Source: a virus (taxonomy: Duplodnaviria > Heunggongvirae > Uroviricota > Caudoviricetes). From it: 25,763 nt of DNA. The stretch is taken from positions 1-25,763 of the IMG/VR virus record IMGVR_UViG_2778261381_000004, one strand, 5' to 3'. A model generated the notes under the pieces. It searched no databases. It was not told the origin of the DNA and saw nothing but the letters and a program-made list of their open reading frames with translations. The translations under genes and the position numbers were made by a program. The first letter of the stretch is position 1. Each line of letters begins with the position of its first letter. Positions 2,291 to 25,510 of this stretch are shown piece after piece.

Positions 2291-2313
2291 TGGTAGGTAG
2301 TTACTTACTTATC
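2291..2313 (-). promoter_or_regulatory. Recurrent intergenic motif, site A (minus-strand reading GATAAGTAAGTAACTACCTACCA)
   Basis: Seen in sequence. Shares GATAAGTAAGTA with site D and the TAAGTA core with sites B, C and E. Lies directly upstream of the 1540..2289 start and its RBS. Confidence 0.35.
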
Positions 2314-2394
2314 ACAATGAGCGGATGATAGCGACTGGTGGCAGTTTTTGGAAGTGGAAACGGAAGGGACTTGTTCTGGTGGGTGTCTTTAAAA

Positions 2395-2453
2395 GACCTG
2401 CTTCTGTATATACAAATAATAAGTAACTTATTAAATACATACGGAAGCAGGTC
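2395..2453. repeat. Long imperfect palindrome downstream of the KAP NTPase gene
   Basis: Seen in sequence: GACCTGCTTC (2395-2404) pairs with GAAGCAGGTC (2444-2453); the 39-nt AT-rich spacer contains GTATATAC and AATAAGTAACTTATT sub-palindromes. Confidence 0.45.
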
Positions 2454-2461
2454 ATAATCTA

Positions 2462-4168
2462 TTAATGATTGAGTATTTTATTAACACGCAGCTTATTAAG
2501 TGTTGATTTTGAAGCAACTTCCTCCAAAGCTTCTATTGCTTTATCAGTGATGCTCTTCTGTTCGTCTGTCGGGTGTTGCATACCCTTGAACTTGAGCATA
2601 GTCTCTTCTACTAAATTCAAAGCATCCTGATCACAGGATAATATCCAGTTTACGTAATCATCTTTAGAAAAACTGTTAAGAATATTCACATCACTATGGT
2701 TAAATCTTCCACCAGCTATTTTTTTTATAATTTTATCTAAGTTATAGTCATCTGGATTTCTATCTTTCAATTTTTTTTCAATTCTGAAACCTAATTCTTC
2801 ATTTCCGAAGATCTCTACTCGCAAAGAATTAAATGTAGCATACGCATTGTCTTTATTAACAAAAGCATCTGCATATGCCTCTATAATATTATTACAATCT
2901 CTATCCAATTTGATTAGGACATTTATTAAACCTACGAACTGTCCAATTGGTATACGCAACAGACTATCGTTAATTACGCGCTCAATTTGAAAAATAAACT
3001 CTGATTCATTATCTTTAAAAGAGTTTCTAAAAACATCCCAAATTTTATAAACCTCACATAAAACCCTATTATCTCTATATTGTTCATTTTTTTCTTTTAT
3101 TATATTTAGAATATTGCTTTCAGAAGACACATAACCGTTCTTAAGGTAAAAATCTATATCATCATCGAAAGCACTTTCTGCTCGTTCATAAATAATATCA
3201 AGGCTATTAACAAATGAATATACAGAGTTAACTTCTTCCTTTTCATCTTTATCATCTAACATATAGTCGAATGCATGTATATTTTTGATTGACTCCTTAA
3301 ATGAAGCATAATCAACGCTAGGAACACCAAAATAGTAAACCACTGAAAATAAGACCAATCTATTAATAAAACTTTCTCTAACCTTATCCTCTGCTAACTT
3401 TAGCACATCTCTAAATATAACTAGAGATGATTTTATTTTATTTAATATTCTAATGTTTTTGATGTTTAAATCATTTGCTAGGTTTTTTAACAAAAGAAAA
3501 TCAGGGTCAGTCTCATAAAAAACTTTTCTTAAGTTTTTCTCAGGCGTGGGATCGTATTTTATTTCCACATCAATTATTTTTTCTCTATACTCTAAAAACT
3601 GTTGTTGTGCAGTTTCTTCATGTAAGTTATCTTCATTTAATATTAGAACAACCTTGCAATTTTTTCTTCTTGCCAACTCATCAATTACCCCCATAATCTC
3701 TTTAATTTCTAGCGCACTACCTTTTCGTTCAATATCATCAATGCAAACCAAATAATTATTAACAAATTTATACTCAAGAGATGACAGCAGATTATCAGTT
3801 TTGAACCCAAAAAAATCGTTCTTTCCAAAATGTATTAAAAATTTTGACAAGGAGTTGTATTTCAACCATCCCCAAAACCCATTTCTATAACGAATCATAG
3901 TTCGATCCGTTTCAGATAAAATCAGTTCTTTATATTTCTTTTCATTAATTGGTGTGGCACAATGATAAAGAGCTTTTTTAATGTCTCCAATAGAATTTAT
4001 TCCAAACAAAGAAACATATGAATATGCATTAAAATCTAATTTTTTAGAATGTTTAGTATAAAAGCTATTCCAATAATGCGTTTTACCTACTCCCCAATTT
4101 CCTTTTATGACAGCAACCCGATGATCTGAGTCCAAAAAATTTTTTAAAAATACTTCTATCGATTCCAT
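2462..4168 (-). CDS. KAP-family P-loop NTPase, candidate accessory (moron) or defence gene
   Basis: 568 aa ORF. Walker A GNWGVGKT near the N-terminus and Walker B LVCIDDIER match the KAP NTPase signatures (G-x-W-G-x-G-K-S/T and hhhhDD-x-R). The gene is visibly far more AT-rich than its neighbours. No transmembrane segment is obvious. Confidence 0.6.
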   Translation of the reverse strand: MESIEVFLKNFLDSDHRVAVIKGNWGVGKTHYWNSFYTKHSKKLDFNAYSYVSLFGINSIGDIKKALYHCATPINEKKYKELILSETDRTMIRYRNGFWGWLKYNSLSKFLIHFGKNDFFGFKTDNLLSSLEYKFVNNYLVCIDDIERKGSALEIKEIMGVIDELARRKNCKVVLILNEDNLHEETAQQQFLEYREKIIDVEIKYDPTPEKNLRKVFYETDPDFLLLKNLANDLNIKNIRILNKIKSSLVIFRDVLKLAEDKVRESFINRLVLFSVVYYFGVPSVDYASFKESIKNIHAFDYMLDDKDEKEEVNSVYSFVNSLDIIYERAESAFDDDIDFYLKNGYVSSESNILNIIKEKNEQYRDNRVLCEVYKIWDVFRNSFKDNESEFIFQIERVINDSLLRIPIGQFVGLINVLIKLDRDCNNIIEAYADAFVNKDNAYATFNSLRVEIFGNEELGFRIEKKLKDRNPDDYNLDKIIKKIAGGRFNHSDVNILNSFSKDDYVNWILSCDQDALNLVEETMLKFKGMQHPTDEQKSITDKAIEALEEVASKSTLNKLRVNKILNH

Positions 4169-4190
4169 TGGTGTCTATCCTTCAACTCAT

Positions 4191-4217
4191 ATATTGGGCG
4201 TAACAAACGCCCAATAT
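4191..4217 (-). promoter_or_regulatory. Stem-loop between the ParG-like gene and the KAP NTPase gene
   Basis: Seen in sequence: perfect 10-bp inverted repeat ATATTGGGCG (4191-4200) / CGCCCAATAT (4208-4217) with a 7-nt loop. No U-tract follows on the coding strand, so it is not a canonical terminator. Confidence 0.4.
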
Positions 4218-4219
4218 AA

Positions 4220-4579
4220 TCACCCTTTCTTCATCAACTCGCGTTTAATTTCATCGGTACGCATCGTGACATCGGCAGCTGTGATCGCCTCGTTAAGTTT
4301 CACGATGTCCTCGATTTCCTGCGGTGTCTTCTCCGCAAGATGGAAAATAGCAGCACGAATCACGTCAGAACGAGTGAACTTCTCGAAGCGAGGGATGAAC
4401 TTCATCATCTCCAGCAGTTCGAAGTATTCGTCCTCCAGTGACATTGTGCGGCTTTTAATTTTCTCTTTGCCACGAGTCGGGCGTCCCTGTGGTCTGACTG
4501 GTTGGCGCAAAGGAGTTGTGTTCTTAGCCGGTGCATCAGGCTCTTTGCGCTTTGCTAGGTCACCCATTTTCATGGACAT
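4220..4579 (-). CDS. Small partition protein, ParG-like centromere-binding protein (possible ribbon-helix-helix)
   Basis: 119 aa ORF whose start overlaps the parA stop. Basic, Pro-rich N-terminal tail followed by a short structured C-terminal region. Function assigned mainly from its position directly after a small ParA, as in type Ib partition systems. Confidence 0.5.
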   Translation of the reverse strand: MSMKMGDLAKRKEPDAPAKNTTPLRQPVRPQGRPTRGKEKIKSRTMSLEDEYFELLEMMKFIPRFEKFTRSDVIRAAIFHLAEKTPQEIEDIVKLNEAITAADVTMRTDEIKRELMKKG

Positions 4580-5247
4580 TATTCTTCTTCCTCCAGACTC
4601 AACAGATAATCTACAAATTCTTCAAACTCGGCTTCCGCCTTTTTGTCGCGCTCGCTACCGGTCATTTCAAAGATAGAACGACCAGACTCTTCCGCATCAT
4701 CATAGACGTTGCGGTTATATAGATTGACTGGCGCAGACTCGATGCCAAACGTCTCAACAATCTCTTTAGCCGCCAGAATGCGAGACACTTGTGATGGCAA
4801 AGCCGGGCACTGGTTCATGACCGCGCGGACCTTCACTTTATCGTTTACATTACGAACATTGTCGATAATAGGATCGATGTCACGCAGAGATTTCAAATCA
4901 CGACGCTTAGGACGAAGCGGGATAATGATAACGTCGGCCATCAGCATCGCTTGTCGCTGAATTTCGGAGTCAAAGCCACCAGCATCTACCACTACAAACT
5001 CAGCTCTACCCTGAAGCGATTTTAGGTGCTTAATGATGTCATCCTGAACGTATGCAAAAGGAATCAGCTCAAGGTCTTCGTTCTGTCGACGGTCTTCACA
5101 CCAGCTTGTTGTCGTGCGCTGAATATCTATATCAGTGATATAAACCTTCTTCTTCTTTTTGACTTTCAGGCAAACGGCAATTTGCTGGGCAACGGTGGAT
5201 TTGCCAGGCCCGCCCTTTGTGCCGCCAACCACAAAGATCTTGGTCAT
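4579..5247 (-). CDS. parA: ParA-family partition ATPase, small type Ib (ParF-like)
   Basis: 222 aa ORF. Deviant Walker A GGTKGGPGKST (KGGxxK[ST]) close to the N-terminus. Size and lack of an N-terminal HTH fit type Ib ParA. Confidence 0.8.
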   Translation of the reverse strand: MTKIFVVGGTKGGPGKSTVAQQIAVCLKVKKKKKVYITDIDIQRTTTSWCEDRRQNEDLELIPFAYVQDDIIKHLKSLQGRAEFVVVDAGGFDSEIQRQAMLMADVIIIPLRPKRRDLKSLRDIDPIIDNVRNVNDKVKVRAVMNQCPALPSQVSRILAAKEIVETFGIESAPVNLYNRNVYDDAEESGRSIFEMTGSERDKKAEAEFEEFVDYLLSLEEEE

Positions 5248-5299
5248 TGGAGAGTTCCCTTTGCGTCTATTATTATCGTCTGAAACAACTTGTTTTCTT

Positions 5300-5490
5300 A
5301 TATGTGATATAGCCTAAATGCCTACGGCTACGGTGTAAAGGTTAAATGGTAGGTTGTGGTTAACAATTGGCAATCATAGCTTGTATTTGTCTGTTGAAAA
5401 AAGTAACAATGACCTCTATATTACAAGTACGGTGATATGCCGTACACAATTTGATAATGCACACGTAATGGGCTATAGCCTTTTAAAGTA
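5300..5490. promoter_or_regulatory. Divergent control region between parA and the toxin-antitoxin operon (candidate centromere/operator repeats and promoter)
   Basis: Seen in sequence: tandem CTACGGCTACGG (5322-5333); TACGGTG at 5329-5335 and again at 5428-5434; inverted repeat GTACGG (5427-5432) / CCGTAC (5440-5445); perfect palindrome GGCTATAGCC (5471-5480) overlapping a sigma70-like -35 TTGATA (5451-5456), 17-bp spacer, -10 TATAGC (5474-5479). Confidence 0.35.
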
Positions 5491-5565
5491 ATTTTTGAGT
5501 CGAAAACTCAGTTTGAACAGAGGAGATTGATGGCCTTCCTACATCACGGCCATCAGGAGGAATAC

Positions 5566-5835
5566 ATGTCAGCACTAAAAAAGCAGCGCATCGATTTGAG
5601 ATTAACCGATGACGATAAAAGCATCATCGAGGAAGCTGCCGCAATGTCTAACCAGAGCATTACTCAGTTTATGGTTAGCAGTGCATCTGAACGTGCCGTG
5701 AAAGTTATAGAGCAACACCGTAGACTAGTTCTGAATGAAGAATCCTGGAATCTGGTTATGGACGCTATAAGCAATCCTCCGGCACCGAACGACAAGCTGA
5801 AACGAGCTGCTGATCGTCTGAAAAGCATGGAGTAG
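5566..5835 (+). CDS. DUF1778 (TacA/AtaR-like) antitoxin
   Basis: 89 aa from the ATG at 5566, which has a GGAGG 5 nt upstream; the longer ORF from 5527 lacks a well-placed RBS. Sequence RIDLRLTDDDKSIIEEAAA...FMV...RLVLNEESWNLVMDAISNPPAPN resembles antitoxins that pair with GNAT toxins. Confidence 0.8.
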   Translation: MSALKKQRIDLRLTDDDKSIIEEAAAMSNQSITQFMVSSASERAVKVIEQHRRLVLNEESWNLVMDAISNPPAPNDKLKRAADRLKSME

Positions 5836-5842
5836 TTTACTC

Positions 5843-6364
5843 GTGAGCAATACAACGATAGAGATTTTCTCTGGAGAGAAAGATTATGATCTAAACGGTT
5901 TTGATTGCGGCGAAGAGTCACTAAACGCCTTTTTAGCCAACCACTTAAAAAGGCAGCATGAGGGAAAAATTCTTCGTGCTTATGTGCTTTGCACTCAAGA
6001 AGAAAGGCCAAAAGTGTTAGGATATTACACTTTGTCAGGTAGTTGTTTTGAAAAGGAGTCCTTACCTTCAAGAAGCAAACAAAAGAAGGTTCCTTATCGG
6101 AATGTTCCAAGTGTTACTTTGGGTAGGCTGGCTTTGGACAAGTCCCTTCAAGGTCAAGGATTTGGCTCAATGCTTGTAACACATGCAATGCGCGTTGTGT
6201 ACAATGCATCTCTTGCTGTAGGCATTCATGGACTTTTCGTTGAGGCGTTAAATGACAAAGCCAAGGCGTTTTATAAAAGTTTAGGCTTTATCCAGCTGGT
6301 TGGTAACAACGAGCGTTCTTTGTTCTATCCTACAAAATCTATCGAAAAATTGTTCGAAGAATAA
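5843..6364 (+). CDS. GNAT-family acetyltransferase toxin (TacT/AtaT-like)
   Basis: 173 aa with a GTG start 8 nt after the antitoxin stop. FDCGEESLNAFL and TLGRLALDKSLQGQGFGSMLV match the conserved motifs of tRNA-acetylating GNAT toxins. Confidence 0.8.
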   Translation: MSNTTIEIFSGEKDYDLNGFDCGEESLNAFLANHLKRQHEGKILRAYVLCTQEERPKVLGYYTLSGSCFEKESLPSRSKQKKVPYRNVPSVTLGRLALDKSLQGQGFGSMLVTHAMRVVYNASLAVGIHGLFVEALNDKAKAFYKSLGFIQLVGNNERSLFYPTKSIEKLFEE

Positions 6365-6367
6365 TGT

Positions 6368-6389
6368 GTTCCCCTCATTTGAGGGGAAC
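6368..6389. terminator. GC-rich hairpin between the convergent toxin-antitoxin operon and lysis cassette
   Basis: Seen in sequence: GTTCCCCTCA (6368-6377) / TGAGGGGAAC (6380-6389), near-perfect. It sits just after the toxin stop and just after the o-spanin stop. No long U-tract on either strand. Confidence 0.45.
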
Positions 6390-6396
6390 TTCGACA

Positions 6397-6612
6397 TCAC
6401 CAACCACAAACCCTCTCTCCCATCGTATTGTGAAAAAGGATTTGGCGTTCGGTTTCTTCAGTCATTACATCATTATTGCTGATATAGATAGGCTCAGCCC
6501 CATCGCAGAACAACACGCTGGCTGTTTGTGGTTTAATGACGCACCCACTTATCATACAACTCACGATGAACGGCAGAAGCATCTTTCTGACGTATTTTAC
6601 TGCTCGTCTCAT
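6397..6612 (-). CDS. Candidate o-spanin (outer-membrane lipoprotein, Rz1-like)
   Basis: 71 aa. N-terminus MRRAVKYVRKMLLPFIVSCMISGC has a basic n-region, a hydrophobic core and an ISGC lipobox. The gene starts inside the 3' end of the upstream i-spanin-like ORF in a different frame. Confidence 0.4.
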   Translation of the reverse strand: MRRAVKYVRKMLLPFIVSCMISGCVIKPQTASVLFCDGAEPIYISNNDVMTEETERQILFHNTMGERVCGW

Positions 6613-6784: not shown

Positions 6785-6785
6785 A

Positions 6786-7815: not shown

Positions 7816-7874
7816 GTTTTCCTCCGTGAAAAGTCAAATCGGGATGGCGGATTTATATCACACTTCTCCTTTTA

Positions 7875-7894
7875 ATTGTAGGTATATACTTACC
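7875..7894 (-). promoter_or_regulatory. Recurrent intergenic motif, site B (minus-strand reading GGTAAGTATATACCTACAAT)
   Basis: Seen in sequence. 18 of 20 positions identical to site E. About 60 nt upstream of the holin-like start. The 3' TACAAT could serve as a -10 element. Confidence 0.4.
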
Positions 7895-8018
7895 TACCTA
7901 TACATATACCGTTTAACGGTTGTTCATATTCGCATCTAGTAACTCACTAATATATCCCTATGATTGCGGCTGTGAAATCGCATTTTTAAACCACACAGCC
8001 ATATAAATAATGTCTAAA

Positions 8019-11000
8019 TCAGTTACTTGTTGCCCCAACAGTACCTGCAAATTTCAGCCATTGACCTGACGGACTTCTATTACTACGGTAGTGATAAACG
8101 AGGATTGCGTTTGTAATCCCACCATAGTCAGCTTTGTGTGACGTCGTTAAACGAATTGTATAATCACCGTTAGGTAGATTAAAAACTTCGATTATAGATT
8201 CTGCTAATTCTACAGCACCAAATCCCGTTATATTGTTGATACTGCCAGCATTGAATCCCATAGCATCGCCAAAGCCAATCCAATAACTTTTGCTAAACGC
8301 CCCATTTGATTTTAGGTGGCTAATGAATGCGGACAAGCTCATGCCCATATCCCCACCTGAAACAGAGGAAGTTCGCACAGTCATACTTGGAAGAGCACTG
8401 CTCTTCACATAGGAACTTAGAAGGTTTGTTACCTCTGTTTTCGTGTAAGCATTAAGGTTAGCCGCAGTCAAAGTTATATCGGCAGAGCCATCAAACGCCA
8501 CACCAGCAATTTTCCTTGCTGTCTGCAATTTTGTGGCGGTTGCGGCATTACCAGTAGTGTTCTGGTTCCCATCTGCATTCACACCTGGAATGCTGTCTTT
8601 TTTAGTATATATCTGAGTCCAGTCCTCTTCGAACCCATAGCCATCACGTGATGAACGGTAATACAATCCACCATTTTTATAATGCGCTCGGATTTGGAGA
8701 GTCCGACAACTACCTACGCCTATATAAAAATTTGCAACGATATAAGAATCCCCGGAGCGTGTAACATTATACGCACCTGATTCGGCATTCCACGGGACCG
8801 CACCACTAGCATCGGCATAAGTTCCAGTAGCGCGTCGAGCAAAAGCAGATACATTTGCAGCTGTTAGTGTTATATCAGCAGAACCATCAAAAGACACGCC
8901 GCTTATTTTTCTAGCAGTTTGCAACTTCGTAGCTGTTGAAGCATTACCGTTCAAACTACCATTTACGCCACCAGTAACATTTAGTCCATTACCAATGGAC
9001 ACAGCACCGCTGGTATTATTAATTGTAATAGGTCGCAAACCGTTCCATGAACCTAATGTGTCTCCTGATGCTGTTAGCATGAAATATGTGTTCGATCCAT
9101 CATTACGGATAAAGAACCCAAAGCTACCGTAAGCAATGCGGAAACCATTTGCATATTTTGAAACGATCTCACCAGAAGACGTTAATCCGCCAGTTAACGC
9201 TCCTCCAGATAGTGGTAAAGCTCCGACATCAGCCGCAGTAGGCTTGTTTTTAGTGTTATACGCTCTGCGCCATCCTGGTGAATAGCTCGTCCCGTTAAAT
9301 ACATAGATAAACTCCGCATTAGTGAGAGCACCAGAGACACTCGCCGTTGTGGCCGTTGTTATACGGATCGTATAATTGTTTGAGCTACTACCGTTATTAA
9401 ATACCTCTATAACAGCTCCTGCTAATGGAATAACGCCACAACCAGTTTCACTATTTGGTATGGTTGCACTATTGGCATAGGCCCACGCACATCGAGCAAT
9501 CCATGACTTTGTGTTAAATGCTCCATTATTTTGCAATAACGTCACTAACTGTGCTGTTGTTATTGCTCCGCCATTACTTCCTGTAGTTAACCAACCAGTA
9601 GGAGATGCCGGGCAACCTATATTTGCTGGCGACAAGGAAATATTTGCCGAGCCGTCAAACGACACCCCATTGATAGTACGCGCAGTCTGCAACTTCGTAG
9701 CAGTAGCCGCGTTGCCCGTTGTATTCTGATTACCAGTCGTATTAACACCTGGCAAATTAATATTCGCAGTACCATCAAAGCTCACGCCGCCGATAGTTCT
9801 TGCCGTCTGAAGTTTTGTAGCAGTTGCAGCATTACCAGTGGTGTTCTGATTACCCGTAGTGTTTACACCTGGAAGGTTAATATTTGCAGAACCGTCGAAA
9901 ACAACTCCACCGATAGATCTTGCCGTCTGCAATTTCGTGGCTGTACTTGCATTACCATTCAATGAACCAGTTAATCCACCTGTAACAGACAACGGACCTG
10001 AAACTGTTCCTCCGGTTGTTGGCAGTGCTCCAATATCTGATGGTGTAGGTTTCTGATGTGAGCTATACATCGTATAAACAACACCATCGGTAACGCTGGA
10101 AGGCTTACTCGCTGAATATGTTGGCGAGGTATAAATAGAAACTGTCGCATTTGCAGTACAATCCCAATGGATATTTACACGAGTCGCATAATTGCCAATC
10201 TCAACGTAAATATCATATGTATCGCCGGATGTGTTGATCCAGGCGAAATTCGTTAATCCGACAGCTGTACGCTTCCACAAAGCACCTGTAATCCCTTTGG
10301 GGTTTCCATTGCCTGCTCGTAGAACCAGTTCTGAAATGCCTGCCTGATGTGGGGAGCCGACGTTGTAACCAGCGCCACCAATCAATGCGATGTAAACGAT
10401 GGAACTCGCTTGTGGCATGGTAACCGTAGCCAGTTTGAACCACCCTGCCCCGCCAGAGAAAGACATCGTTACTGAATTTAAAGTACCAATATCTTTCGGC
10501 GTTAATGTGATATCCGCAGTCAGTGCTTTACCGTTAACTTTTCGGTTAGATGGCACCCTGCTATTCGCATTGTCATTGGCTGCTTTAACTGCTTTTGGCG
10601 TTGCGGCCAGCGATTCACTGGTGCTGTCGACAGCACTGCTAAGTTTCACAACACCTTTAGTTGTAAGGCTTGCGTCTTCCATCGCAACTGCACCGGCAAT
10701 CTCTTCAGCACGATCAGCAGCAGCTTCCGCACGGGTCGCAGCGGATTCAGCAGCAGTTTTGCTCTGAGATGCTGCCGTCGCACTGCCTGCCGCCTCTGTT
10801 GCTTTCGTGGATGCCGTCGTGGCACTGCCCTTCGCTGCTGACGCCTGTCTGGTCGCCTCATCTTTTGAAGCAGACGCAGATGATGCCGATGACGCCGCCG
10901 AACTGGCGGACGATGCGGCAGCCGTTTTTGAGGATTCTGCGCTGGTTTCCGACGCTTTCGCGTTCGTTTCGGATGTCTTCGCTGCGGAAGCAGACCTCGC

Positions 11001-12044
11001 TGCTGCGCTAGCCTGTTCAGTGGCTTCGCCAGCCTTCGTTGTGGCTGTTGAAGCAGACGATGCGGCACTTTCTGCCGATTTTCCGGCGGCGGTGGCACTG
11101 GCTGAGGCCTGCCCGGCACTTGTTGACGCGGCACTGGCAGACGACGCAGCCGCTGTTTTTGAGCCTGCCGCAGCTGAGGCACTCTGTGCTGCTGCCGTCT
11201 CAGAAGACTTAGCGTTCGTCTCGGACGTTTTTGCCGCCTTCGCGGAATTGCCTGCCGCTGTTGCCGAGGAGGCTGCACTACTGGCGCTCAAGGATGCGTT
11301 CGTTTCTGATGATTTCGCTGCCTCTTTTGAGGCCGCCGCATCCCGGGCTGAGGTGGCAGCTTCTGACGCTTTCGTGGTCGCGGTGGATGCAGAAGTGGCT
11401 GCTGATTGTTGTGACGCTGCGGCATTCGTTTCAGATTTTTTCGCAGCAGTTGCACTCGCACTTGCGGCACTTTGTGAGGATGCCGCAGCGGATGCACTTT
11501 GAGACGCTTGAGAGGCTTTTTCTCCAGCGGTATTGGCGCTTTCTGCTGCTGCGGCAGCACTGGCCGCTGCCTCACGAGCTTTGTCGCCAGCAGCATCAAT
11601 CGCGTCAGTGTTATTTTTATACCACTCAACGTTTTCGTTGTGCTCGTTGACGATCTGCATTAGCGGCTTAACGGTTACTTCTGTACCGTCTTCACGCTCG
11701 ATTGTCACCTCATCCAGAGCAGTCAACCAACTGCGCATAGACTTGGAATCAGCCGACATACGCGACATTAGTGCTGTAAAGCGCGCGCTAAACTGTGTTA
11801 AGTCGCCTTCATAGGTCGTAATGATTCGGCACGGAACCTCAGACTGAGTTTCGCCGGTATAAGGTTCTGAGAGAACAATATTCGTATCGCTTATTACGCG
11901 CTTGATCTCATACAGCTTATTGTCGGGGCCAATGACGATCATCCCCGGCAACACACCATTAGCTGTTACGTTCCAGGCTGTCCCTGCCCCAACCAGAGTA
12001 TTGCTACCCTGTGTAAATGTGATAGTACCTTCCCTGTACCACAT
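8019..12044 (-). CDS. Side tail fibre protein
   Basis: 1341 aa. Conserved tail-fibre-like N-terminus, then a ~300 aa Ala/Ser/Thr-rich tract with repeated KxSETNA units, then at least five copies of a GN(A/Q)xTATKLQTAR-I-GV-FDGSA-I-L repeat. Confidence 0.85.
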   Translation of the reverse strand: MWYREGTITFTQGSNTLVGAGTAWNVTANGVLPGMIVIGPDNKLYEIKRVISDTNIVLSEPYTGETQSEVPCRIITTYEGDLTQFSARFTALMSRMSADSKSMRSWLTALDEVTIEREDGTEVTVKPLMQIVNEHNENVEWYKNNTDAIDAAGDKAREAAASAAAAAESANTAGEKASQASQSASAAASSQSAASASATAAKKSETNAAASQQSAATSASTATTKASEAATSARDAAASKEAAKSSETNASLSASSAASSATAAGNSAKAAKTSETNAKSSETAAAQSASAAAGSKTAAASSASAASTSAGQASASATAAGKSAESAASSASTATTKAGEATEQASAAARSASAAKTSETNAKASETSAESSKTAAASSASSAASSASSASASKDEATRQASAAKGSATTASTKATEAAGSATAASQSKTAAESAATRAEAAADRAEEIAGAVAMEDASLTTKGVVKLSSAVDSTSESLAATPKAVKAANDNANSRVPSNRKVNGKALTADITLTPKDIGTLNSVTMSFSGGAGWFKLATVTMPQASSIVYIALIGGAGYNVGSPHQAGISELVLRAGNGNPKGITGALWKRTAVGLTNFAWINTSGDTYDIYVEIGNYATRVNIHWDCTANATVSIYTSPTYSASKPSSVTDGVVYTMYSSHQKPTPSDIGALPTTGGTVSGPLSVTGGLTGSLNGNASTATKLQTARSIGGVVFDGSANINLPGVNTTGNQNTTGNAATATKLQTARTIGGVSFDGTANINLPGVNTTGNQNTTGNAATATKLQTARTINGVSFDGSANISLSPANIGCPASPTGWLTTGSNGGAITTAQLVTLLQNNGAFNTKSWIARCAWAYANSATIPNSETGCGVIPLAGAVIEVFNNGSSSNNYTIRITTATTASVSGALTNAEFIYVFNGTSYSPGWRRAYNTKNKPTAADVGALPLSGGALTGGLTSSGEIVSKYANGFRIAYGSFGFFIRNDGSNTYFMLTASGDTLGSWNGLRPITINNTSGAVSIGNGLNVTGGVNGSLNGNASTATKLQTARKISGVSFDGSADITLTAANVSAFARRATGTYADASGAVPWNAESGAYNVTRSGDSYIVANFYIGVGSCRTLQIRAHYKNGGLYYRSSRDGYGFEEDWTQIYTKKDSIPGVNADGNQNTTGNAATATKLQTARKIAGVAFDGSADITLTAANLNAYTKTEVTNLLSSYVKSSALPSMTVRTSSVSGGDMGMSLSAFISHLKSNGAFSKSYWIGFGDAMGFNAGSINNITGFGAVELAESIIEVFNLPNGDYTIRLTTSHKADYGGITNAILVYHYRSNRSPSGQWLKFAGTVGATSN
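8460..9960 (-). repeat. Tail-fibre repeat copies within the fibre gene
   Basis: The protein unit NASTATKLQTAR...FDGSANINLPGVNTTGNQNTTG recurs with near-identical DNA (for example ...gcagcattaccagtggtgttctgattacc...) around 8500-8600, 8880-8960 and 9640-9960. Coordinates approximate. Confidence 0.6.
10700..11600 (-). repeat. Low-complexity Ala/Ser-rich coding tract of the tail fibre
   Basis: Corresponds to roughly residues 150-445 of the fibre protein. It generates several long spurious ORFs on the opposite strand and in other frames. Confidence 0.6.
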
Positions 12045-12060: not shown

Positions 12061-12086
12061 GATTTGGCGGGTTATCCTTGCCCGCC
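12061..12086 (-). promoter_or_regulatory. 5' leader stem-loop upstream of the tail fibre gene
   Basis: Seen in sequence: GGCGGG / CCCGCC inverted repeat with a 9-nt loop, lying between motif site C and the AAGGAG RBS of the fibre gene. Confidence 0.35.
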
Positions 12087-12104
12087 ATTAAGTAAATACT
12101 TACC
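12087..12104 (-). promoter_or_regulatory. Recurrent intergenic motif, site C (minus-strand reading GGTAAGTATTTACTTAAT)
   Basis: Seen in sequence. Shares GGTAAGTAT and TACTTA with sites B and E. About 45 nt upstream of the fibre start. Confidence 0.4.
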
Positions 12105-12137
12105 TATTTTTACCGATATAAAATTTTTTTTCCACCA

Positions 12138-18974: not shown

Positions 18975-18997
18975 GGCGCTAACATCCTGTCAGCGCC
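18975..18997 (-). promoter_or_regulatory. 5' leader stem-loop upstream of the L-like gene
   Basis: Seen in sequence: GGCGCT / AGCGCC inverted repeat with an 11-nt loop, between motif site D and the L RBS. Confidence 0.35.
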
Positions 18998-19002
18998 ACA
19001 AT

Positions 19003-19028
19003 GATAGTAAATTAGTACTTACTTATCC
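19003..19028 (-). promoter_or_regulatory. Recurrent intergenic motif, site D (minus-strand reading GGATAAGTAAGTACTAATTTACTATC)
   Basis: Seen in sequence. Shares GATAAGTAAGTA with site A and the 3' TTACTAT with site E. About 50 nt upstream of the L start. Confidence 0.4.
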
Positions 19029-19034
19029 AGATAC

Positions 19035-19407: not shown

Positions 19408-19412
19408 GATAG

Positions 19413-22400
19413 TTAGTTACGTTGAGTGTTTGGGTTGAGTGATCCGCCAGGGCGTTTCTCTTGAGCGATAGTCTCAAGCGCGATTGCTTTCATCCGTTGA
19501 GCGGCATTGTTCCATATGCTTTCTGTATCGCCGGATTCAGTTGTGCTACCGTCACTATGGACGTTGATCTCAATTGATACAGGAGAAAGAACATTTCCTC
19601 CTCCACTCATACCATCGGTACTGAGCGTTACAGGGATTGTTCGACCATCAGGCAATGGAACATACGCCTCATTCATAGAACCTTCCCCAAACAACGCTAA
19701 TTGAGGTGAGTTAGCAATACCGCCTTTCTGGTATGCCCGGAGCGGGATCACGCCGTCTTTTCCGAATATTCCGCCATTTGCAAACTTCGGGATTGCAGGA
19801 ATGCCTTTAGTTCCGTCAGCCACACTGCTGGTTGCGGTTTTAGCAGAGCTTGATGTCACGCTGTCGAAACCACCGCCAGCCCATACTGAAACCAAACCAG
19901 ATGCAACTGTCGCGCCGAAATTCAACCACTTATTACCAGAGCCGGAAGCATTAGCTCCAAGCATTGCAAACGCGGCAGACAGAGCGCCGGTAACAGAGCT
20001 GAGGTTCTGCATCGAGAAGATGGAGTCCTTCACTGCTTTTGTCTCAGCATCTTTGGCTTCGGTGCTATTAAATAGCCCTGATACCCAGCTACCAATCGCA
20101 TTTGTTGCTGTGCCAATTGCGCTGGTGGTCTGCTGTGTCGTTTGCCCCAATCCAGTTACCGAACTGGACGTCTCCTTCGTGGCTTCTCCTACCGACTTGT
20201 CGCCATTAACAGTGTTGCTTATGCGCACACCTTGATTGGCAACTGCGGAAGCAACCCCGGTGAGCAAATTACCACTCTGTGAACTACCAGCTGCGGTGGT
20301 TCCCATTCCCAACATGTTCATTAGAGGCAGCGTGATCTGCGACTTCACGACCATATTGGTGATATCTTTCAAAATGGACTGAGATAGGCTGGAGAAGCTC
20401 ATCTTCCCGTTAATAACGAAATCAGTCAGGACATCAGTTAAGCCACTAAACAAATCAGTCCAGGTGCTTTCGATCTGCTCTGCCAGATTTTCGTATTCCA
20501 GTGCCAACTTCTGCGTCGCAGTCCCCGTCTCTTTAATAAGCGCGGTATTGCCAGCAGCAATCAGTTGATTGATTTTCTTTGTATAAAGCGCCACAACTTT
20601 AGGATCAGACGCCTTATCACGAAGTTCTATCAACGCTTTGAGATTGCGGTTGTAGGTGTCTTTGAAATCAGCAACTTTCTCTTCGCGAGACGGCGTATAG
20701 CCAGCACTAATAATGGAATCCGCCTCCGGTGCCCAAGTGGAGATCATCTGCTCAACATTGCGGCGATTAAACATCTCACGATATTCAGGTGTCGCATTTT
20801 TGAGGTCTTCAAGACGTTTTTTCGCCTTGTCGATCATCTCTTGAGTGATGAACTCGTTAGGAACCGCATTAGCCAAATCTGTCAGCGATTTCGTTGTATC
20901 GCGAAGAGACTGATCAAACGATACCGTAGCCTTAGAGCTTTCACCCATTTGCCCCATAAGCTGATCGGCTTTGTCCAGAGCCTTCTGGTATCCGGCTGCC
21001 AGTTTCTGTTGCGCTGCCTGTTCCTTCTTGGCCGCACGCTGCGAGGCGTTAGCTGATCGTTGGGCTGCTTTCTCGGCAGCTGCTGCATCCTGTTCACGAG
21101 CTTTAGTAAGTGCGGCAATGGCTGCGGCACGCTCTTCATCGCTCATTTTCTCCAGAGAGCTGGCACTGGATGCTTTCTGCAAATTAAGCTGCGTCTTGAG
21201 TTGTTTAGGCCCAATAATCGGCTTACCTTCGAAGTCCATCATCGGAGTGCCGTCAGGCAAAGTACGCTGATAAGTCGCAGAATCCATCTGGTTTCGCATA
21301 TATTGCGCCAACGCCTTCTGAGCAGCTTTATCAGTTGTACCTAACCCAAGAACAGTCCCCTGGTTTGACATTACGCCCTTACCAGTTTTGGCCGCGTTAT
21401 CTCTCTCGAACTCTGCCTGAGTAAGTTCCTGAGCAACGGCTTCCAAATGCTCCTGATAACCACGAATACTGCCTTGCAGTTTCTGGATTTGCTCGGTATT
21501 GCCATCCTTTTTGGCTTTTTCAAGCTGATCATTAAGAGTCGCGATTTGCTTCTCGGTCGCATTCTTACGAGAAGAAAGTGAATCAACCAGTTTTTGCGCA
21601 GGCTCCAGATAGCTTTTGTTTACCGTTTCACGTAACGGTGCCAATAGCTTGTTCTTTTCGTCATCTGAAAGTGAACCGTCATCATTGATTTTCTGGATCT
21701 TATCCAGAGCCTCCTGCCGGGCTTTCACGAATGTTGCCGCGAAAATCTGGTTTTCCGCTCGAATTTTCTCAATCTGAGATTCGGCAGCCTCTTTAGCCAA
21801 ACGCTTTGCTACAGCGCCGTCACCAAGAGCTATCGTGCCGGTTATCTTTTGATACTCTTCCTGATTTTTTTTCAGGCGTGCTTCGATGTCAGCCTTCGAC
21901 TCTTTGTGAGTAATAACACCGGCAGAGTTAGATACGTAATTAACACCCTCACCAGTTTTTAATGCTCGTTGATCAGCAAGAATCTGCTTTTCGAGCTTTT
22001 CTGCGCGGTCGGCCATTTGTGCACGTTTGGCCGCCGTCATCGCCTCTGGTATTTTCCTAATCTCGTCAACGACCTTTGAAGTTTCGCTGCGGAGCATGGT
22101 CATGTACGTGATTAGGCCAGCAACAGCTACAGTGGCAACTGTAAATGCTGCCCCTATAGGGTTTGCTGCAATGAACGCCGTTAATCCAGCAAAAGCGCCT
22201 TTAAGCCCCGTAATCGCCCCACGGATGGCGAAAATAAGAGAGGGGATCGGAGCCAGCCCCATACGTGCCGCACGATTGAATCGGGTTACTGCTGTAGCGC
22301 CGAGGTTAAATGGAGTCTGTATGGCGGTCGCCATCGTGGCAAAGGTGCTAACCATCTGGCTGCCTGCGCCAACTACCCCCATGATCCCTGCTCGCATCAG

Positions 22401-23987
22401 TTTGAACGCAACCATCGCGGCCACGACCTTACCGAGATTAATTACCAGCTCTTGGTTCTTTGCTAACCATTGAGCAAGCTGACGCAACCCATCGATTGCC
22501 GTCGTTAACCCCGAGCCTAAAGAATTGGCAAACGAAATCCCTTCGGCGCTATTCATGATTGAAGCCAGTTCTTTCATCCCCTTCGATAGAGAATCCAGAT
22601 ATCCGGCCTGACCAACCCGATCAGCAAATAACGTGAATGACGTCTGAAGTTGCGCCAGCGCACCTGTGTAGGTTTGCATCATGTCTTTCGCTGCGTTCTC
22701 ATTCTCCGCACGCAGACCAACAAACATCAGAGACAACGCCTGTTTTGCCTCAACCGTACCGCTGGCAACGGCTTTAGTCAGTTCCCCCATAGTGATGCCT
22801 GCGGCGTCTGCCATTGCCTGCATCGCGTTAGGAACGGCTTCACCTAATTGCTGACGTAGCTCTTCCATTGACACAACGCCCTTACCGGACATCTGCTGAA
22901 CGGCCACAGCCGCACGTTTCAACAGCTCACTATCACCACCAAAACGAGCAACGGAGTCCACCAGCGCCTTCAGAGAACCATCGGTTGGATCTAAGCCAGC
23001 AGAACGAAACTTCACGAAGGAATCTGTTAACGCCTGCATCGCGAACGGCGCATTTTGCGCCATGTCTACGATGTACTTCATATCATCAGCGGCAGCCTGG
23101 CCCGGGTTGGACTTCTCCTTATTCAACCCTCGAAGCATCACCCGCATACGTTCCATTTCGGCCGCAGCTTCAACAATAGGCTTCTGCCACCCAAACATGA
23201 TGTCAGTAACCGTTCTGGCTGCATCTCCGATCTCGCCAAGCAGGAAAATGTTGCCACGAAGGCCAGAGAATATACCTCCTTCGTTACTTTTACCGCTATG
23301 GCCAGAAGCGCCGCTACGCCGCCCGCTACCACCATCGCCACTTCCAGATGTACGAACGCGTACCGGCTTGCTAATCAGTTGCTGACGTCCGATAACTTCG
23401 TCCATCTGCTCACGAACCTTTTTCAGTCCCTCGGCAGCCTGACTCGTTGTGACACCCCAATTACTGAGTCGCTTCGTCGTGGTATTAAGGCGCGTATTCA
23501 TGCCACTCACGGACGCAGAGGCTTCTTTGGCCTCCGTACCAAAGCGGCTTGCGCTTTTGCTTGCATAGGTCGCCCAATCAGAGAAATCATTTAGCTCTGA
23601 TTGCACTTTACGTAATGACGCGGTGAGTTTATCTACTGAAGAAGTTGTCGTATCGACGCGCTCAATCAGGGCTTTAAGACCAGAATTGAGGCTGGTGATG
23701 TTGCCACGCATTTTACGCGTAGCATCTGAAGCAAGCTCAAAACCGGCAGCTACATCCTGTAGTTTATCTGCCGTAGAATCGAGCTTGCTTTCCAGAACGC
23801 CAATGATACGGGCGACCGAACCCAAAGAGCGTTCAAAGGTTTGGATTTTTTGAGCAGGCTTTGTTACCTGCTCACCAAATCGAGTAAGCAGTTTCCCCGC
23901 ACGATCGATTGACGCTGTAAACTGTTTGTCTTCCAGCGACAGGATAAACTCTACGTTTTGTGACATTCCCTTGTCATCCTCTGCCAA
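19413..23987 (-). CDS. Tail tape measure protein
   Basis: 1524 aa, the largest ORF of the module. Ala/Gln/Lys-rich helical composition, hydrophobic segments in the middle, Gly-rich C-terminal region. Located between the G/T chaperone pair and M as in lambda H. Confidence 0.85.
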   Translation of the reverse strand: MAEDDKGMSQNVEFILSLEDKQFTASIDRAGKLLTRFGEQVTKPAQKIQTFERSLGSVARIIGVLESKLDSTADKLQDVAAGFELASDATRKMRGNITSLNSGLKALIERVDTTTSSVDKLTASLRKVQSELNDFSDWATYASKSASRFGTEAKEASASVSGMNTRLNTTTKRLSNWGVTTSQAAEGLKKVREQMDEVIGRQQLISKPVRVRTSGSGDGGSGRRSGASGHSGKSNEGGIFSGLRGNIFLLGEIGDAARTVTDIMFGWQKPIVEAAAEMERMRVMLRGLNKEKSNPGQAAADDMKYIVDMAQNAPFAMQALTDSFVKFRSAGLDPTDGSLKALVDSVARFGGDSELLKRAAVAVQQMSGKGVVSMEELRQQLGEAVPNAMQAMADAAGITMGELTKAVASGTVEAKQALSLMFVGLRAENENAAKDMMQTYTGALAQLQTSFTLFADRVGQAGYLDSLSKGMKELASIMNSAEGISFANSLGSGLTTAIDGLRQLAQWLAKNQELVINLGKVVAAMVAFKLMRAGIMGVVGAGSQMVSTFATMATAIQTPFNLGATAVTRFNRAARMGLAPIPSLIFAIRGAITGLKGAFAGLTAFIAANPIGAAFTVATVAVAGLITYMTMLRSETSKVVDEIRKIPEAMTAAKRAQMADRAEKLEKQILADQRALKTGEGVNYVSNSAGVITHKESKADIEARLKKNQEEYQKITGTIALGDGAVAKRLAKEAAESQIEKIRAENQIFAATFVKARQEALDKIQKINDDGSLSDDEKNKLLAPLRETVNKSYLEPAQKLVDSLSSRKNATEKQIATLNDQLEKAKKDGNTEQIQKLQGSIRGYQEHLEAVAQELTQAEFERDNAAKTGKGVMSNQGTVLGLGTTDKAAQKALAQYMRNQMDSATYQRTLPDGTPMMDFEGKPIIGPKQLKTQLNLQKASSASSLEKMSDEERAAAIAALTKAREQDAAAAEKAAQRSANASQRAAKKEQAAQQKLAAGYQKALDKADQLMGQMGESSKATVSFDQSLRDTTKSLTDLANAVPNEFITQEMIDKAKKRLEDLKNATPEYREMFNRRNVEQMISTWAPEADSIISAGYTPSREEKVADFKDTYNRNLKALIELRDKASDPKVVALYTKKINQLIAAGNTALIKETGTATQKLALEYENLAEQIESTWTDLFSGLTDVLTDFVINGKMSFSSLSQSILKDITNMVVKSQITLPLMNMLGMGTTAAGSSQSGNLLTGVASAVANQGVRISNTVNGDKSVGEATKETSSSVTGLGQTTQQTTSAIGTATNAIGSWVSGLFNSTEAKDAETKAVKDSIFSMQNLSSVTGALSAAFAMLGANASGSGNKWLNFGATVASGLVSVWAGGGFDSVTSSSAKTATSSVADGTKGIPAIPKFANGGIFGKDGVIPLRAYQKGGIANSPQLALFGEGSMNEAYVPLPDGRTIPVTLSTDGMSGGGNVLSPVSIEINVHSDGSTTESGDTESIWNNAAQRMKAIALETIAQEKRPGGSLNPNTQRN

Positions 23988-24243
23988 ATATTTGCATCAG
24001 TTGCTCTTTGGCGTCAGGGTCTGCCTTATCCTGGCTTGGATCGTAGACTTTATCTGTTACGACTGGTCTTCCAATCCTGAGTTGCAAACCCTCCATGAAC
24101 GCCTTCACAGCCTCGCCATCCGCCTGGGACGCACGAGCGACTTGTAAGTTGCGGACATCCTCTTCCGCACGCAGACGGTCTATATTGCGACTGAGCATCC
24201 AGAACATCGTGAGAGGAACGTTCAGTAGCTCTAATGGCGACAC
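23974..24243 (-). CDS. Tail assembly chaperone, T-like frame (probably expressed as a G-T fusion by -1 frameshift)
   Basis: 89 aa ORF in the -1 frame relative to the G-like ORF. The listed start codon is GTG, and by my hand translation the frame stays open upstream to about 24360, overlapping the end of the G-like ORF. Confidence 0.5.
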   Translation of the reverse strand: MSPLELLNVPLTMFWMLSRNIDRLRAEEDVRNLQVARASQADGEAVKAFMEGLQLRIGRPVVTDKVYDPSQDKADPDAKEQLMQIFGRG

Positions 24244-24323
24244 GGCGTAGTGAGCAACTACACGACTGAAATAGAATCCGAGATCTATTGAGACGGTCCT
24301 TGTCCCGGATTCATCGCGGGAAA

Positions 24324-24641
24324 TTACTTTGCCCCTTCGCCAGCCGCTTTTTCGTTTTCTTCATCAATCACTTCCATAGCGAAGGTGAAGATCTGCTGGA
24401 GTTGCGGAACAGTCAGTTTTTCAAGAACTTCGTCAGGTACTGAAGGGATAACCTTACGAACCAGATCTGCATAAGCTGTCACTTGCTCAACAGGAGACAT
24501 ATTCATGAGATCTTTGCCTTCCATCTGCTTGATGGAAACGAACAGACCTACCGTCATTTCAACGATGGGATATTCCTGACCGCCAAATTTGATGCTTTTC
24601 TTCGGAGGCAGAATGGAATCTAGATCGAGTAATTTGGTCAT
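24324..24641 (-). CDS. Tail assembly chaperone, G-like
   Basis: 105 aa acidic protein located between the major tail gene and the tape measure gene, followed by an overlapping -1 frame ORF. This is the conserved G/GT arrangement of siphovirus tails. Confidence 0.6.
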   Translation of the reverse strand: MTKLLDLDSILPPKKSIKFGGQEYPIVEMTVGLFVSIKQMEGKDLMNMSPVEQVTAYADLVRKVIPSVPDEVLEKLTVPQLQQIFTFAMEVIDEENEKAAGEGAK

Positions 24642-24662
24642 TGGTTAAAATCCTTTTAAAAG

Positions 24663-24682
24663 AGAGGCCCATCCTGAGCCTC
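24663..24682 (-). terminator. Terminator/attenuator-like hairpin between the major tail gene and the G-like gene
   Basis: Seen in sequence: minus-strand RNA AGAGGC-UCAGGAUGG-GCCUCU followed by CUUUUAAAAGGAUUUU. Six-bp stem only, so probably partial termination. Confidence 0.35.
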
Positions 24683-24696
24683 TGCTTAATTACTGA

Positions 24697-25443
24697 TTAA
24701 TCTGCGGGGTTAATCGTTACTGACTTAGTTGCCTTCTTACCACCGCTATTGCTGGTGAAGGAGATATTTGTAGAACCCTGCGCCACACCACGTACCAGAC
24801 CCGTTTGATCTACCGTGGCCTTTTCCTGGTCTTCGGATTCCCAAACACCGGTTTTGTCTGCGGCATCAGCTGGAGTGATTTCGGCTGTCAGTTGCACAGT
24901 TTCTCCAGCTTTTACGGTTGGAGATTCCGGTGAGATCGACACAGTTTTTACCGGTTTAGGACCGCTCATTTTGCCCAGAACGCCTTCATCATCCGGGTAT
25001 GCGCTGAACTGAACAGAGAACACACGAACATCATCAGACTGGTAGGTCATAGTGAAGTTGCCCGCGGTTGCCGCTTTCGGGATGGTCAACACATAGTCGG
25101 TGGTGTCCTGCGGAGTCAGAACCAGCTCCTTCGCCACATCAATCAGGTTAACGCCCTGTGCAGATGTGATCGTGACAGAGTTGTCATCTTCGCTCAGAGT
25201 AGAACCAGGCATCAGGTCAACCATGTTTTGGAGTACAGACTCAGCCAGAGGCGCGGTGATGGTAATGTTGCGCCCCTGAACTAATTCGGAAATTACGGTC
25301 TGCCCCAACTGATCGACGGTGACTTTCAGCGTTTCAGTGGCTACTTCAACCTGAACACCACCTTTGGTGTAACCCAAATCCACACCACCAAACGACACCT
25401 TACAGGCACCAAGTTTGATGTTTTTTACATGGGTATTAGACAT
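24697..25443 (-). CDS. Major tail protein (V-like) with C-terminal Ig-like (Big_2-type) domain
   Basis: C-terminal ~80 aa (VKTVSISPESPTVKAGETVQLTAEITPA...GSTNISFTSNSGGKKATKSVTINP) looks like a bacterial Ig-like domain, as on lambda gpV. Start chosen at the ATG at 25443 (AAGGAG upstream); the longer ORF from 25479 would begin about 10 nt from motif site E. Confidence 0.7.
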   Translation of the reverse strand: MSNTHVKNIKLGACKVSFGGVDLGYTKGGVQVEVATETLKVTVDQLGQTVISELVQGRNITITAPLAESVLQNMVDLMPGSTLSEDDNSVTITSAQGVNLIDVAKELVLTPQDTTDYVLTIPKAATAGNFTMTYQSDDVRVFSVQFSAYPDDEGVLGKMSGPKPVKTVSISPESPTVKAGETVQLTAEITPADAADKTGVWESEDQEKATVDQTGLVRGVAQGSTNISFTSNSGGKKATKSVTINPAD

Positions 25444-25490
25444 TGATGGAAAACTCCTTTTTCCGTTAATTCTACGCATTCATTGCGCTA

Positions 25491-25510
25491 ATAGTAAGTA
25501 TATACTTACC
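25491..25510 (-). promoter_or_regulatory. Recurrent intergenic motif, site E (minus-strand reading GGTAAGTATATACTTACTAT; contains 16-bp perfect palindrome GTAAGTATATACTTAC)
   Basis: Seen in sequence. The palindrome spans 25494-25509. 18 of 20 positions identical to site B. About 47 nt upstream of the proposed major tail start. Confidence 0.45.

Follow-up and report, generated by a model that had tools for sequence, protein, structure and literature searches.

A dyad-symmetric intergenic motif in SSU5-like phage-plasmids as a candidate operator of a phage-encoded regulator

The locus and its recurring motif

The stretch of DNA analysed here (hereafter the window; IMG/VR record IMGVR_UViG_2778261381_000004, 25,763 nucleotides) is part of an SSU5-like phage-plasmid and carries closely related copies of a short palindromic motif in five of its intergenic gaps. 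Megablast aligns 92% of the window at 98% identity to Escherichia phage Cyrano, which is the pLF82 element of E. coli LF82, and the identity to Salmonella phage SSU5 is about 80%. It represents the tail, lysis, partition and helicase part of such an element and its coding strand is the minus strand. The genes encoded in the window include a helicase, a 249-aa open reading frame (ORF), a low-GC insertion, ParA with a small partner protein, a TacA/KacT toxin-antitoxin pair, the lysis genes, a tail fibre, the tail proteins J, I, K, L and M, the tape measure protein and the major tail protein.

A preliminary description of the window had recognised a recurring motif of about 20 bp with a TAAGTA core. 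All five of the sequences that it quoted were found on the minus strand where it had placed them, sites B and E are identical at 18 of 20 positions, site E contains a perfect 16-bp palindrome (GTAAGTATATACTTAC), and sites A and D share the stretch GATAAGTAAGTA. The GC-rich stem-loops noted past sites C and D are present as well, with a small additional one past site E. While the recurrence is real, the 20-bp frame is slightly out of register with the true unit, which is an 18-bp dyad. The family consensus is a palindrome with the half-sites TAGGTAAGT and ACTTACCTA and a weak extension of the form aATGA...TCATt. Another description of the motif, as TAAGTA-N2-TACYTA followed by a -10 element, was discarded for its wrong register.

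A search of the window with TARGTAAGTACTTACYTA and up to three mismatches returned exactly the five sites, compared to 0.02 matches expected from 100 dinucleotide shuffles. With a weight matrix derived from the related genomes, the sites score between 21.8 and 27.3, and the maximum reached in 200 shuffled windows is 19.1. Even the bare hexamer TAAGTA is confined to these gaps on the coding strand, with all eight of its occurrences in the window falling inside the five of them. The positions of the sites and of other features discussed in the text are collected in Table 1.

Table 1. Dyad sites, adjacent stem-loops and other features. Positions refer to the window unless a contig is named.
Feature	Position	Strand	Sequence or description	Matrix score	Context and orthologous sites
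Site A	2294..2311	none	dyad, minus reading TAAGTAAGTAACTACCTA	23.7	upstream of the 249-aa ORF/helicase operon; Cyrano 31297, SSU5 33601
Site B	7879..7896	none	dyad TAGGTAAGTATATACCTA	24.8	gap between tail-fibre gene and holin gene; Cyrano 26658, SSU5 27475
Site C	12089..12106	none	dyad TAGGTAAGTATTTACTTA	27.3 (top match in window)	between host-specificity protein J and tail-fibre gene; Cyrano 22449, SSU5 21938
Site D	19008..19025	none	dyad TAAGTAAGTACTAATTTA	23.4	between minor tail genes M and L; Cyrano 15530, SSU5 15590
Site E	25495..25512	none	dyad TTGGTAAGTATATACTTA, including the perfect 16-bp palindrome	21.8	gap between tail-completion gene and major tail protein gene; Cyrano 9019, SSU5 9068, pJN2-26 47137
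Stem-loop after site C	12066..12086	-	GGCGGGC-aaggata-GCCCGCC, GC-rich, without T-run		begins 2 nt past site C
Stem-loop after site D	18975..18997	-	terminator-like, GGCGCTGACAGGATGTTAGCGCC, then T-rich tail		begins 10 nt past site D
Stem-loop after site E	25474..25489	-	small, arms AGCGCA/TGCGT		
Second repeat	2395-2453		palindrome of about 60 bp		
568-aa ORF	2462-4168	-	28% GC		by the partition module
119-aa gene	4220-4579	-			after parA
parA upstream region	5248-5526		own repeats		
1341-aa tail-fibre gene	9784-11520		segment with likeness to lambdoid side tail-fibre genes		
SBS-like palindrome arrays	L053 9350-9600; L074 1465-1705; L046 5240-5415		IMG/VR contigs, about 40% GC		

The preliminary description had put four of the motifs 45–60 nt upstream of a start codon. 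When measured from the end of the motif as then framed to the likely true start, the distances become approximately 59 nt (B), 42 nt (C) and 47 nt (E, to ATG 25443), 17 or about 41 nt (D) and about 10 nt (A, to ATG 2280). The distance for site D is ambiguous because the annotated ATG falls within the hairpin. As had been noted, site A adjoins the ribosome-binding site of its gene, with the Shine-Dalgarno (SD) sequence AGGTGA, and the dyad itself ends about 13 nt ahead of the likely ATG. These measurements touch upon two gene starts. The first in-frame ATG of the minor tail protein L (18985) lies inside the stem-loop after site D, and the SSU5 annotation along with a better SD places the start some 25–35 nt further downstream (18961 or 18952). 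The major tail protein likely begins at 25443, 36 nt past the first listed ATG at 25479.

Genome-wide distribution

The genomes of Cyrano (108 kb) and SSU5 (103 kb) were rebuilt from their annotated records and searched for the 18-mer. With up to five mismatches, Cyrano has 27 intergenic matches and one coding match, while SSU5 has 27 and four, respectively, in genomes that are 87–88% coding (87% for Cyrano). At least one of the "coding" matches is due to a doubtful start codon. The single true intragenic copy is at the 3' end of the portal gene and is kept in all three of the enterobacterial genomes examined. The preliminary description had proposed that intergenic and coding frequencies be compared and that relatives be searched for the motif; both comparisons leave the motif standing, with the sites kept in related genomes.

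Cyrano, SSU5 and the Klebsiella element pJN2-26 each have about 25–30 copies of the dyad, of which approximately 95% are intergenic and situated at orthologous gene junctions. Within the initial 50 kb of pJN2-26, 16 matches (shifted registers counted) lie at such junctions, two of them perfect. In Cyrano and SSU5, the genes downstream of the dyads serve replication, recombination and nucleotide metabolism, and also head and tail formation and lysis. The exact consensus is restricted to 31 stretches among 2.9 million IMG/VR contigs. All of these are SSU5-like, with 70–84% identity to Cyrano, and present a dyad density of 3.4 per 10 kb versus 2 per 2 Mb of random sequence. No description of the motif was found in the searchable literature.

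Anatomy of the dyad

In an alignment of 54 sites, the columns are mirror partners of each other and contain about 22 bits in all. The weak flanks are mirrored too, with A at position 0 matched by T at position 19, and A at position -3 by T at position 22. Despite this symmetry, the two arms do not covary: independent arms would give 421 Watson-Crick pairs, and the 410 that were observed are reached in 1786 of 2000 permutations. Independent half-sites indicate that selection acts on the sequence of each half-site, as in a site read by a dimeric DNA-binding protein, rather than on a hairpin.

A search for promoter elements around the sites gave little. Scores for a -35 element were the same at the sites as in a mirror control, with no enrichment on either side, and a scan for the sigma-70 consensus (-35 and -10 spaced by 16–18 bp) produced no more matches than were found in shuffles. 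Sigma-70 promoters that overlap the sites were rejected on account of the -35 result; the exception to the absence of a -35 is the site between terL and the portal gene of Rhizobium phages, which is described below. The sole enriched hexamer is TAnnnT beginning at dyad position 17, which occurs in 52% of sites, compared to 13% or less at other offsets. When 101 non-redundant SSU5-like sites were oriented by gene direction, TAnnnT was gene-proximal in 54 and gene-distal in 63. Since the hexamer is as common on one side as on the other, it is best regarded as part of a symmetric site, and the motif as lacking direction. The same symmetry rules out an oriented -10.

The placement of the dyad with respect to genes varies considerably. 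The distance to the next start codon ranges from 2 to more than 100 nt, several dyads abut an SD (such as site A and the terL-portal site), and several come straight after an intrinsic terminator. Five dyads, including those of sites C, D and E, have a GC hairpin 2–10 nt downstream. From a reading of the sequences, the pairing of the stem-loop after site E is kept with different letters in its relatives, namely GGCACC/GGTGCT in SSU5 and GTGTGTC/GACAC in pJN2-26.

Relatives in Rhizobium phages

The IMG/VR collection was also scanned with a pattern based on the rule for the binding site (SBS) of SlmA, a host nucleoid-occlusion factor that is considered later. More than 120 loci were obtained, many of which combine a GC content of 57–65% with several sites per locus and lack a close relationship to Cyrano. 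The high-GC loci were identified as the Rhizobium phages B1VFA, V1VFA-S and RHph_X66, which have been described as phage-plasmid-like (PMC12509600). In B1VFA (59% GC), ten copies of TAAGTAAGYRCTTACTTA occur within 20 kb. All ten are intergenic and lie at SSU5-like junctions: between the helicase and a ParB-like gene, before terS, between terL and the portal gene, before the major capsid protein gene, after that gene beside a terminator, and 36 nt ahead of a tRNA cluster.

The more distant phage RHEph10 has dyads of the type TCAATCAAT/ATTGATTTA at the same junctions with both arms altered together; the two variants may be compared as TAAGTAAG and TCAATCAA. At the terL-portal junction, the dyad fills a 17-bp promoter spacer exactly, reading TTGCAA-17-TACAAT in the B1VFA type and TTGACG-17-TACCAT in RHEph10. 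A dyad that is kept in phages of an alpha-proteobacterium and that drifts with the phage lineage points to a co-evolving binder encoded by the phage.

Candidate binding proteins

Three proteins co-occur with the motif in the enterobacterial and Rhizobium elements: CYRAN_119, CYRAN_120 and CYRAN_123. CYRAN_119 contains a ParB_N domain (Pfam PF02195, 50 bits with a cut-off of 26.3) with PDB matches to Spo0J, ParB and Noc. Its gene begins 1–28 nt downstream of a dyad in Cyrano, SSU5, pJN2-26, B1VFA and RHEph10, and the protein is 35–38% identical to its homologues in the Rhizobium phages. The C-terminus has a conserved block, H-x3-R-x-K-V ... NAGxALV, that is ribbon-helix-helix-like in appearance, and a beta-alpha-alpha pattern is discernible there both by eye and in a low-confidence model. 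CYRAN_120 is a ParB_N paralogue of CYRAN_119. CYRAN_123 is a LexA-like winged-helix protein of 88 aa (80–90 aa in the family) whose gene immediately precedes terS.

The genes of these proteins belong to a conserved operon located directly before terS (Cyrano 105144-108317) that is syntenic in SSU5, pJN2-26, B1VFA and RHEph10. It encodes two ParB_N proteins, an ABC-type ATPase, an ATPase/acetyltransferase-like protein and the small winged-helix protein, and is divergent from a UvsW-like helicase.

Other proteins of the element were also considered. The 119-aa gene that follows parA is annotated as RelE/ParE in Cyrano but has no Pfam match; its product reads like the ribbon-helix-helix centromere-binding protein of a type Ib partition system. 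The region upstream of parA contains repeats of its own (GGCTATAGCC, AGGCTATAGCC and AGGCTATATCAC) and the TAAGTA dyad is absent from it. As a result, the ParA partner is unlikely to be the binder, and the notion that the dyad is the centromere of this partition system was rejected. CYRAN_45, a putative repressor of Cyrano, is missing from SSU5, which keeps all of the sites. CYRAN_117, which is expressed in the lysogen, is not conserved beyond the SSU5-like elements, and CYRAN_114 is an FljA/Hfq-like RNA binder. None of the latter three was retained.

Interpretation of the dyad as an operator

The five sites are interpreted as copies of a direction-less, dyad-symmetric operator of a global phage regulator, to which a probability of about 0.6 is assigned. 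The combination of a dyad that fills a promoter spacer between terL and the portal gene, dyads that follow terminators, silent downstream genes and a motif without direction favours this interpretation. A promoter spacer is the position of a classical repressor operator, and copies that come straight after terminators sit where a new transcription unit must start. In the Cyrano lysogen, nearly all genes downstream of the dyads are silent (PMC9928086). Regulator binding sites were among the possibilities raised in the preliminary description, and this possibility gains support from the symmetry of the motif, its independent half-sites, its conservation at orthologous junctions and its change of sequence in a related lineage.

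A conserved phage-encoded protein, either dimeric or tetrameric, would bind the dyads and thereby define one phage-wide regulon. It would act upon transcription, given dyads at core-promoter or unit-boundary positions; at core promoters, the dyad would cover about -28 to -11. In the plasmid state, the regulator would silence the lytic transcription units globally, like KorB on RK2 or C1 on P1. Silencing as the direction of control is put forward tentatively. Repression is ranked slightly ahead of activation.

A number of observations weigh against the proposed operator and its binder. Most sites lack a -35, which is a poor fit to the silencing of autonomous promoters. Some copies abut an SD or span the interval from a stop codon to the next start such that no promoter could serve the following gene, and other copies are found directly upstream of terminators. 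The three proteins are candidates for the binder by co-conservation. One of them, CYRAN_119, has no helix-turn-helix or other recognised DNA-binding domain and no Pfam match past residue 100, and its AlphaFold model was unusable (pLDDT = 39.6, from a shallow alignment). Uncomfortably for a lysogeny repressor, none of the three co-conserved candidates is among the genes expressed at least five-fold above background in the LF82 lysogen (PMC9928086).

If correct, the interpretation has some practical value. SSU5-like phage-plasmids, which include pHCM2 of Salmonella Typhi, pLF82/Cyrano and many Klebsiella elements, are widespread carriers of resistance genes and their regulation is essentially unstudied. 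One 18-bp operator at nearly all transcription-unit boundaries, in phages from Enterobacterales to Rhizobium, would define a regulon and provide an experimental handle on the master regulator of the decision between lysis and plasmid maintenance.

Alternative explanations

The near-absence of -35 elements would instead favour an activator such as Lpa of phage P1. With this in mind, the sites may be considered as activator-dependent promoters in which a phage protein on the palindrome recruits the sigma-70 RNA polymerase of the host, the last TA of the dyad forming a -10-like TAnnnT with the palindrome just upstream. The downstream hairpins would then be terminators of upstream transcripts that are skipped by starts inside or after the left arm. 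The frequency of TAnnnT at position 17 is in keeping with this model, as are the dyads right after terminators and the one ahead of the tRNA cluster. A start approximately 7 nt past the hexamer would fall at or beyond the left arm of the hairpin in five of six cases, and five start codons cluster 11–14 nt past the dyad, a spacing that would suit leaderless transcripts. A 9-bp palindromic box is found in the 11 late promoters of P1 (PMC10695390), and the box annotated for LPhot, AAGTTACTT, has AAGT/ACTT half-sites in common with the dyad core. On the other hand, TAnnnT does not distinguish the gene-proximal from the gene-distal side, about half of the sites in B1VFA do not keep a consistent orientation, and dyads precede genes of replication and nucleotide metabolism and not late genes only. 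A tblastn search of Cyrano and SSU5 for Lpa gave a best E-value of 0.29, and none of nine regulatory candidates matches phrog_1704, the Lpa group, which Lpa itself matches at 7.6e-85; a P1-type Lpa system was rejected on these grounds. Overall, activator-dependent promoters are regarded as rather unlikely. Far less credible are two further explanations that the preliminary description had also raised in part. An RNA-level element, in which the transcribed palindrome would form a hairpin for processing, stability or translational control between cistrons, could account for the many copies 0–20 nt from an upstream stop codon (the dyad often opens with the TAA or TAG stop itself) and for dyads that overlap the ribosome-binding region. 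However, compensatory pairing between the arms is absent, the AT-rich stem has a loop of 0–2 nt, and what is conserved across genomes of 46–60% GC is the sequence and not the pairing. Processing signals and RNA or cruciform hairpins were therefore dismissed. Promoters of a phage RNA polymerase or sigma factor, or a selfish mobile palindrome akin to repetitive extragenic palindromic (REP) elements, would likewise present as a genome-wide, lineage-specific intergenic motif, but the dyad is symmetric and without direction, some copies abut an SD or span a stop-to-start interval, and its positions are orthologous across distant genomes, unlike those of a variable mobile element. Moreover, the annotations of Cyrano and SSU5 list neither an RNA polymerase nor a sigma factor gene, and that of pJN2-26 lists no phage RNA polymerase gene. 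Both of these explanations are given almost no weight.

A host protein presents a different case. The dyads may be SBSs that the phage-plasmid concentrates in order to recruit or titrate SlmA, either to block the FtsZ ring over plasmid or replicating phage DNA or to employ SlmA as a silencer. The SBS is GTGAGTACTCAC, in which G, T, A and G are required at positions 1, 2, 4 and 5, while position 3 accepts either purine and position 6 either pyrimidine (PMC3020112). The dyad core GTAAGT/ACTTAC satisfies every one of these rules as the 12-bp form GTRAGY/RCTYAC. Within the 54-site alignment, position 9 is only T (45) or C (9) and position 10 is only A (43) or G (11), as expected from the pyrimidine and purine rules. 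Under the phage matrix, the SBS consensus from the literature (AAGTAAGTGAGCGCTCACTTACGT) and two natural sites, SBS17 and SBS12 (PMC4423959), fall in register with p values of approximately 1e-4, 1.5e-4 and 5e-3, respectively, and they have TAA flanks in common with the dyad. Cell division is blocked by multicopy plasmids that bear SBSs, and SlmA can repress a promoter with an SBS in its spacer (PMC3573117), while in Vibrio cholerae SlmA is a direct activator (PMC5519180). The dyad density of about 1 per 4 kb is some 20 times that of the chromosome, which has 24–52 SBSs per 4.6 Mb (PMC4726725), and no phage SlmA homologue was found. There are several difficulties with SlmA as the reason for the sites. 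SlmA has a slight preference for G at SBS position 3, yet G is nearly absent there (0 of 54 left arms and 3 of 54 right arms), a bias that SlmA alone would not explain. The five window sites fit the 12-mer rule at 10–11 positions (11 for site C), though SBS17 and SBS12 also fit at 10 of 12; the SBSs of the chromosome lie outside promoter regions; and the RHEph10 dyad has diverged such that it no longer fits an SBS. The same dyad is present at the same junctions in B1VFA, V1VFA-S and RHph_X66, and the alpha-proteobacterial hosts of these phages are not known to have SlmA. This occurrence speaks against SlmA as the primary binder, a role that is considered improbable. Binding of SlmA in enterobacterial hosts is possible as cross-talk and would not be the reason that the sites exist.

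The phage operator and the SBS may also be combined. A ParB-family or other phage protein together with the 25–30 dyads could constitute a genome-wide silencing or organising system across a phage-plasmid supercommunity, with the dyads also being bona fide SBSs in enterobacteria through which the element sequesters or activates SlmA. This combination is considered unlikely. Were it true, a Cyrano lysogen with 5.5 copies per cell would contribute about 150 extra SBSs, compared to 24–52 per chromosome and 300–400 SlmA molecules, and the presence of the plasmid or the amplification of lytic DNA would be coupled to the control of cell division.

Arrays of SBS-like palindromes (for example, TTAGTGAGTGCTTACTAA and TAAGTGAGTGCTTACTTA) occur on three other viral contigs, with 5–6 palindromes each spaced 27–50 bp apart in a non-coding stretch upstream of the terminase module. 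These contigs have no similarity to Cyrano or to any phage in the collection, and present either G or A at SBS position 3. The arrays may be true SlmA-site arrays or a pac- or centromere-like region.

Other features of the window

A second repeat, close to site A, is a palindrome with GC-rich arms (GACCTGCTTCTGTATATA/TACATACGGAAGCAGGTC) and an AT-rich centre (TAATAAGTTACTTATTA). The centre contains a sequence identical to the annotated LPhot late-promoter box of P1. Further copies are found in Cyrano (31160-31230, 78085-78150 and the record ends) and in SSU5 (33470, 78330 and the record ends). With three copies per genome at module boundaries (between the partition/toxin-antitoxin and replication modules, after dam and before terS) and T-runs on both sides, this repeat may be a terminator for both directions or a further protein site.

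The 568-aa ORF stands out by its low GC content against a background of 46%. It contains a KAP-family P-loop NTPase domain (Pfam E = 6.6e-6) and is missing from Cyrano, where a different gene of 267 aa occupies that place. It has the appearance of an accessory or defence-type gene that was inserted here. Part of the 1341-aa tail-fibre gene has 87–95% identity to the side tail-fibre genes of lambdoid coliphages that are otherwise unrelated, among them phi458, Turner and 2H10, which indicates that the receptor-binding module was exchanged recently. Beyond the window, CYRAN_43 (Cyrano 40268-40822) encodes a protein of 184 aa with no family match that SSU5 does not have. Its expression is reported to be 723-fold above the prophage background in the LF82 lysogen (PMC9928086).

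Comparison with known systems

When read as an operator set, the dyads have precedents in P1 and RK2, but their sequence and regulator are uncharacterised. On the IncP plasmid RK2, one ParB-family protein, KorB, reads 12 sites and controls many operons. The KorB operators (OB), like the sites of ParB and Noc, resemble the dyad in being a short dispersed palindrome with a dozen or more copies per replicon, largely in promoter or intergenic positions, that is read by a ParB-family protein encoded by the element itself; here, a ParB_N gene lies directly downstream of a conserved copy. The phage set differs in having 25–30 sites instead of 12, in dyads that often abut ribosome-binding sites or terminators, and in a candidate that lacks the helix-turn-helix of ParB and KorB and is linked to the site by inference.

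The operators of C1 on P1 are also dispersed, although the C1 operator is asymmetric. As an enterobacterial phage-plasmid, P1 has many transcription units that each contain a copy of one regulator site (PMC10695390). It differs from the present elements, which have no Lpa homologue and in which one motif serves early-type and late genes alike. The dyad is also 18 bp long and touches the -10-like hexamer, with a distance from centre to hexamer of 7.5 bp compared to 9–14 bp in two annotated P1 late promoters.

The Arc- and Mnt-type ribbon-helix-helix operators of P22 offer another likeness, in that an 18–21 bp dyad in the promoter spacer is bound by a tetramer. These are single operators and not a genome-wide set, and the ribbon-helix-helix fold of the ParB_N candidate is putative. 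The SBS of E. coli agrees with the 18-bp dyad at all specificity-determining positions of its published consensus and in the flanks; the phage dyad is intergenic where the SBS is intragenic, and has adenine almost exclusively at SBS position 3. The proposed operator set of the SSU5-like phage-plasmids is unusual in its spread over both early and late genes. It is kept in phages of different host classes, and its consensus is an exact match to the SlmA site within the degeneracy that SlmA tolerates.

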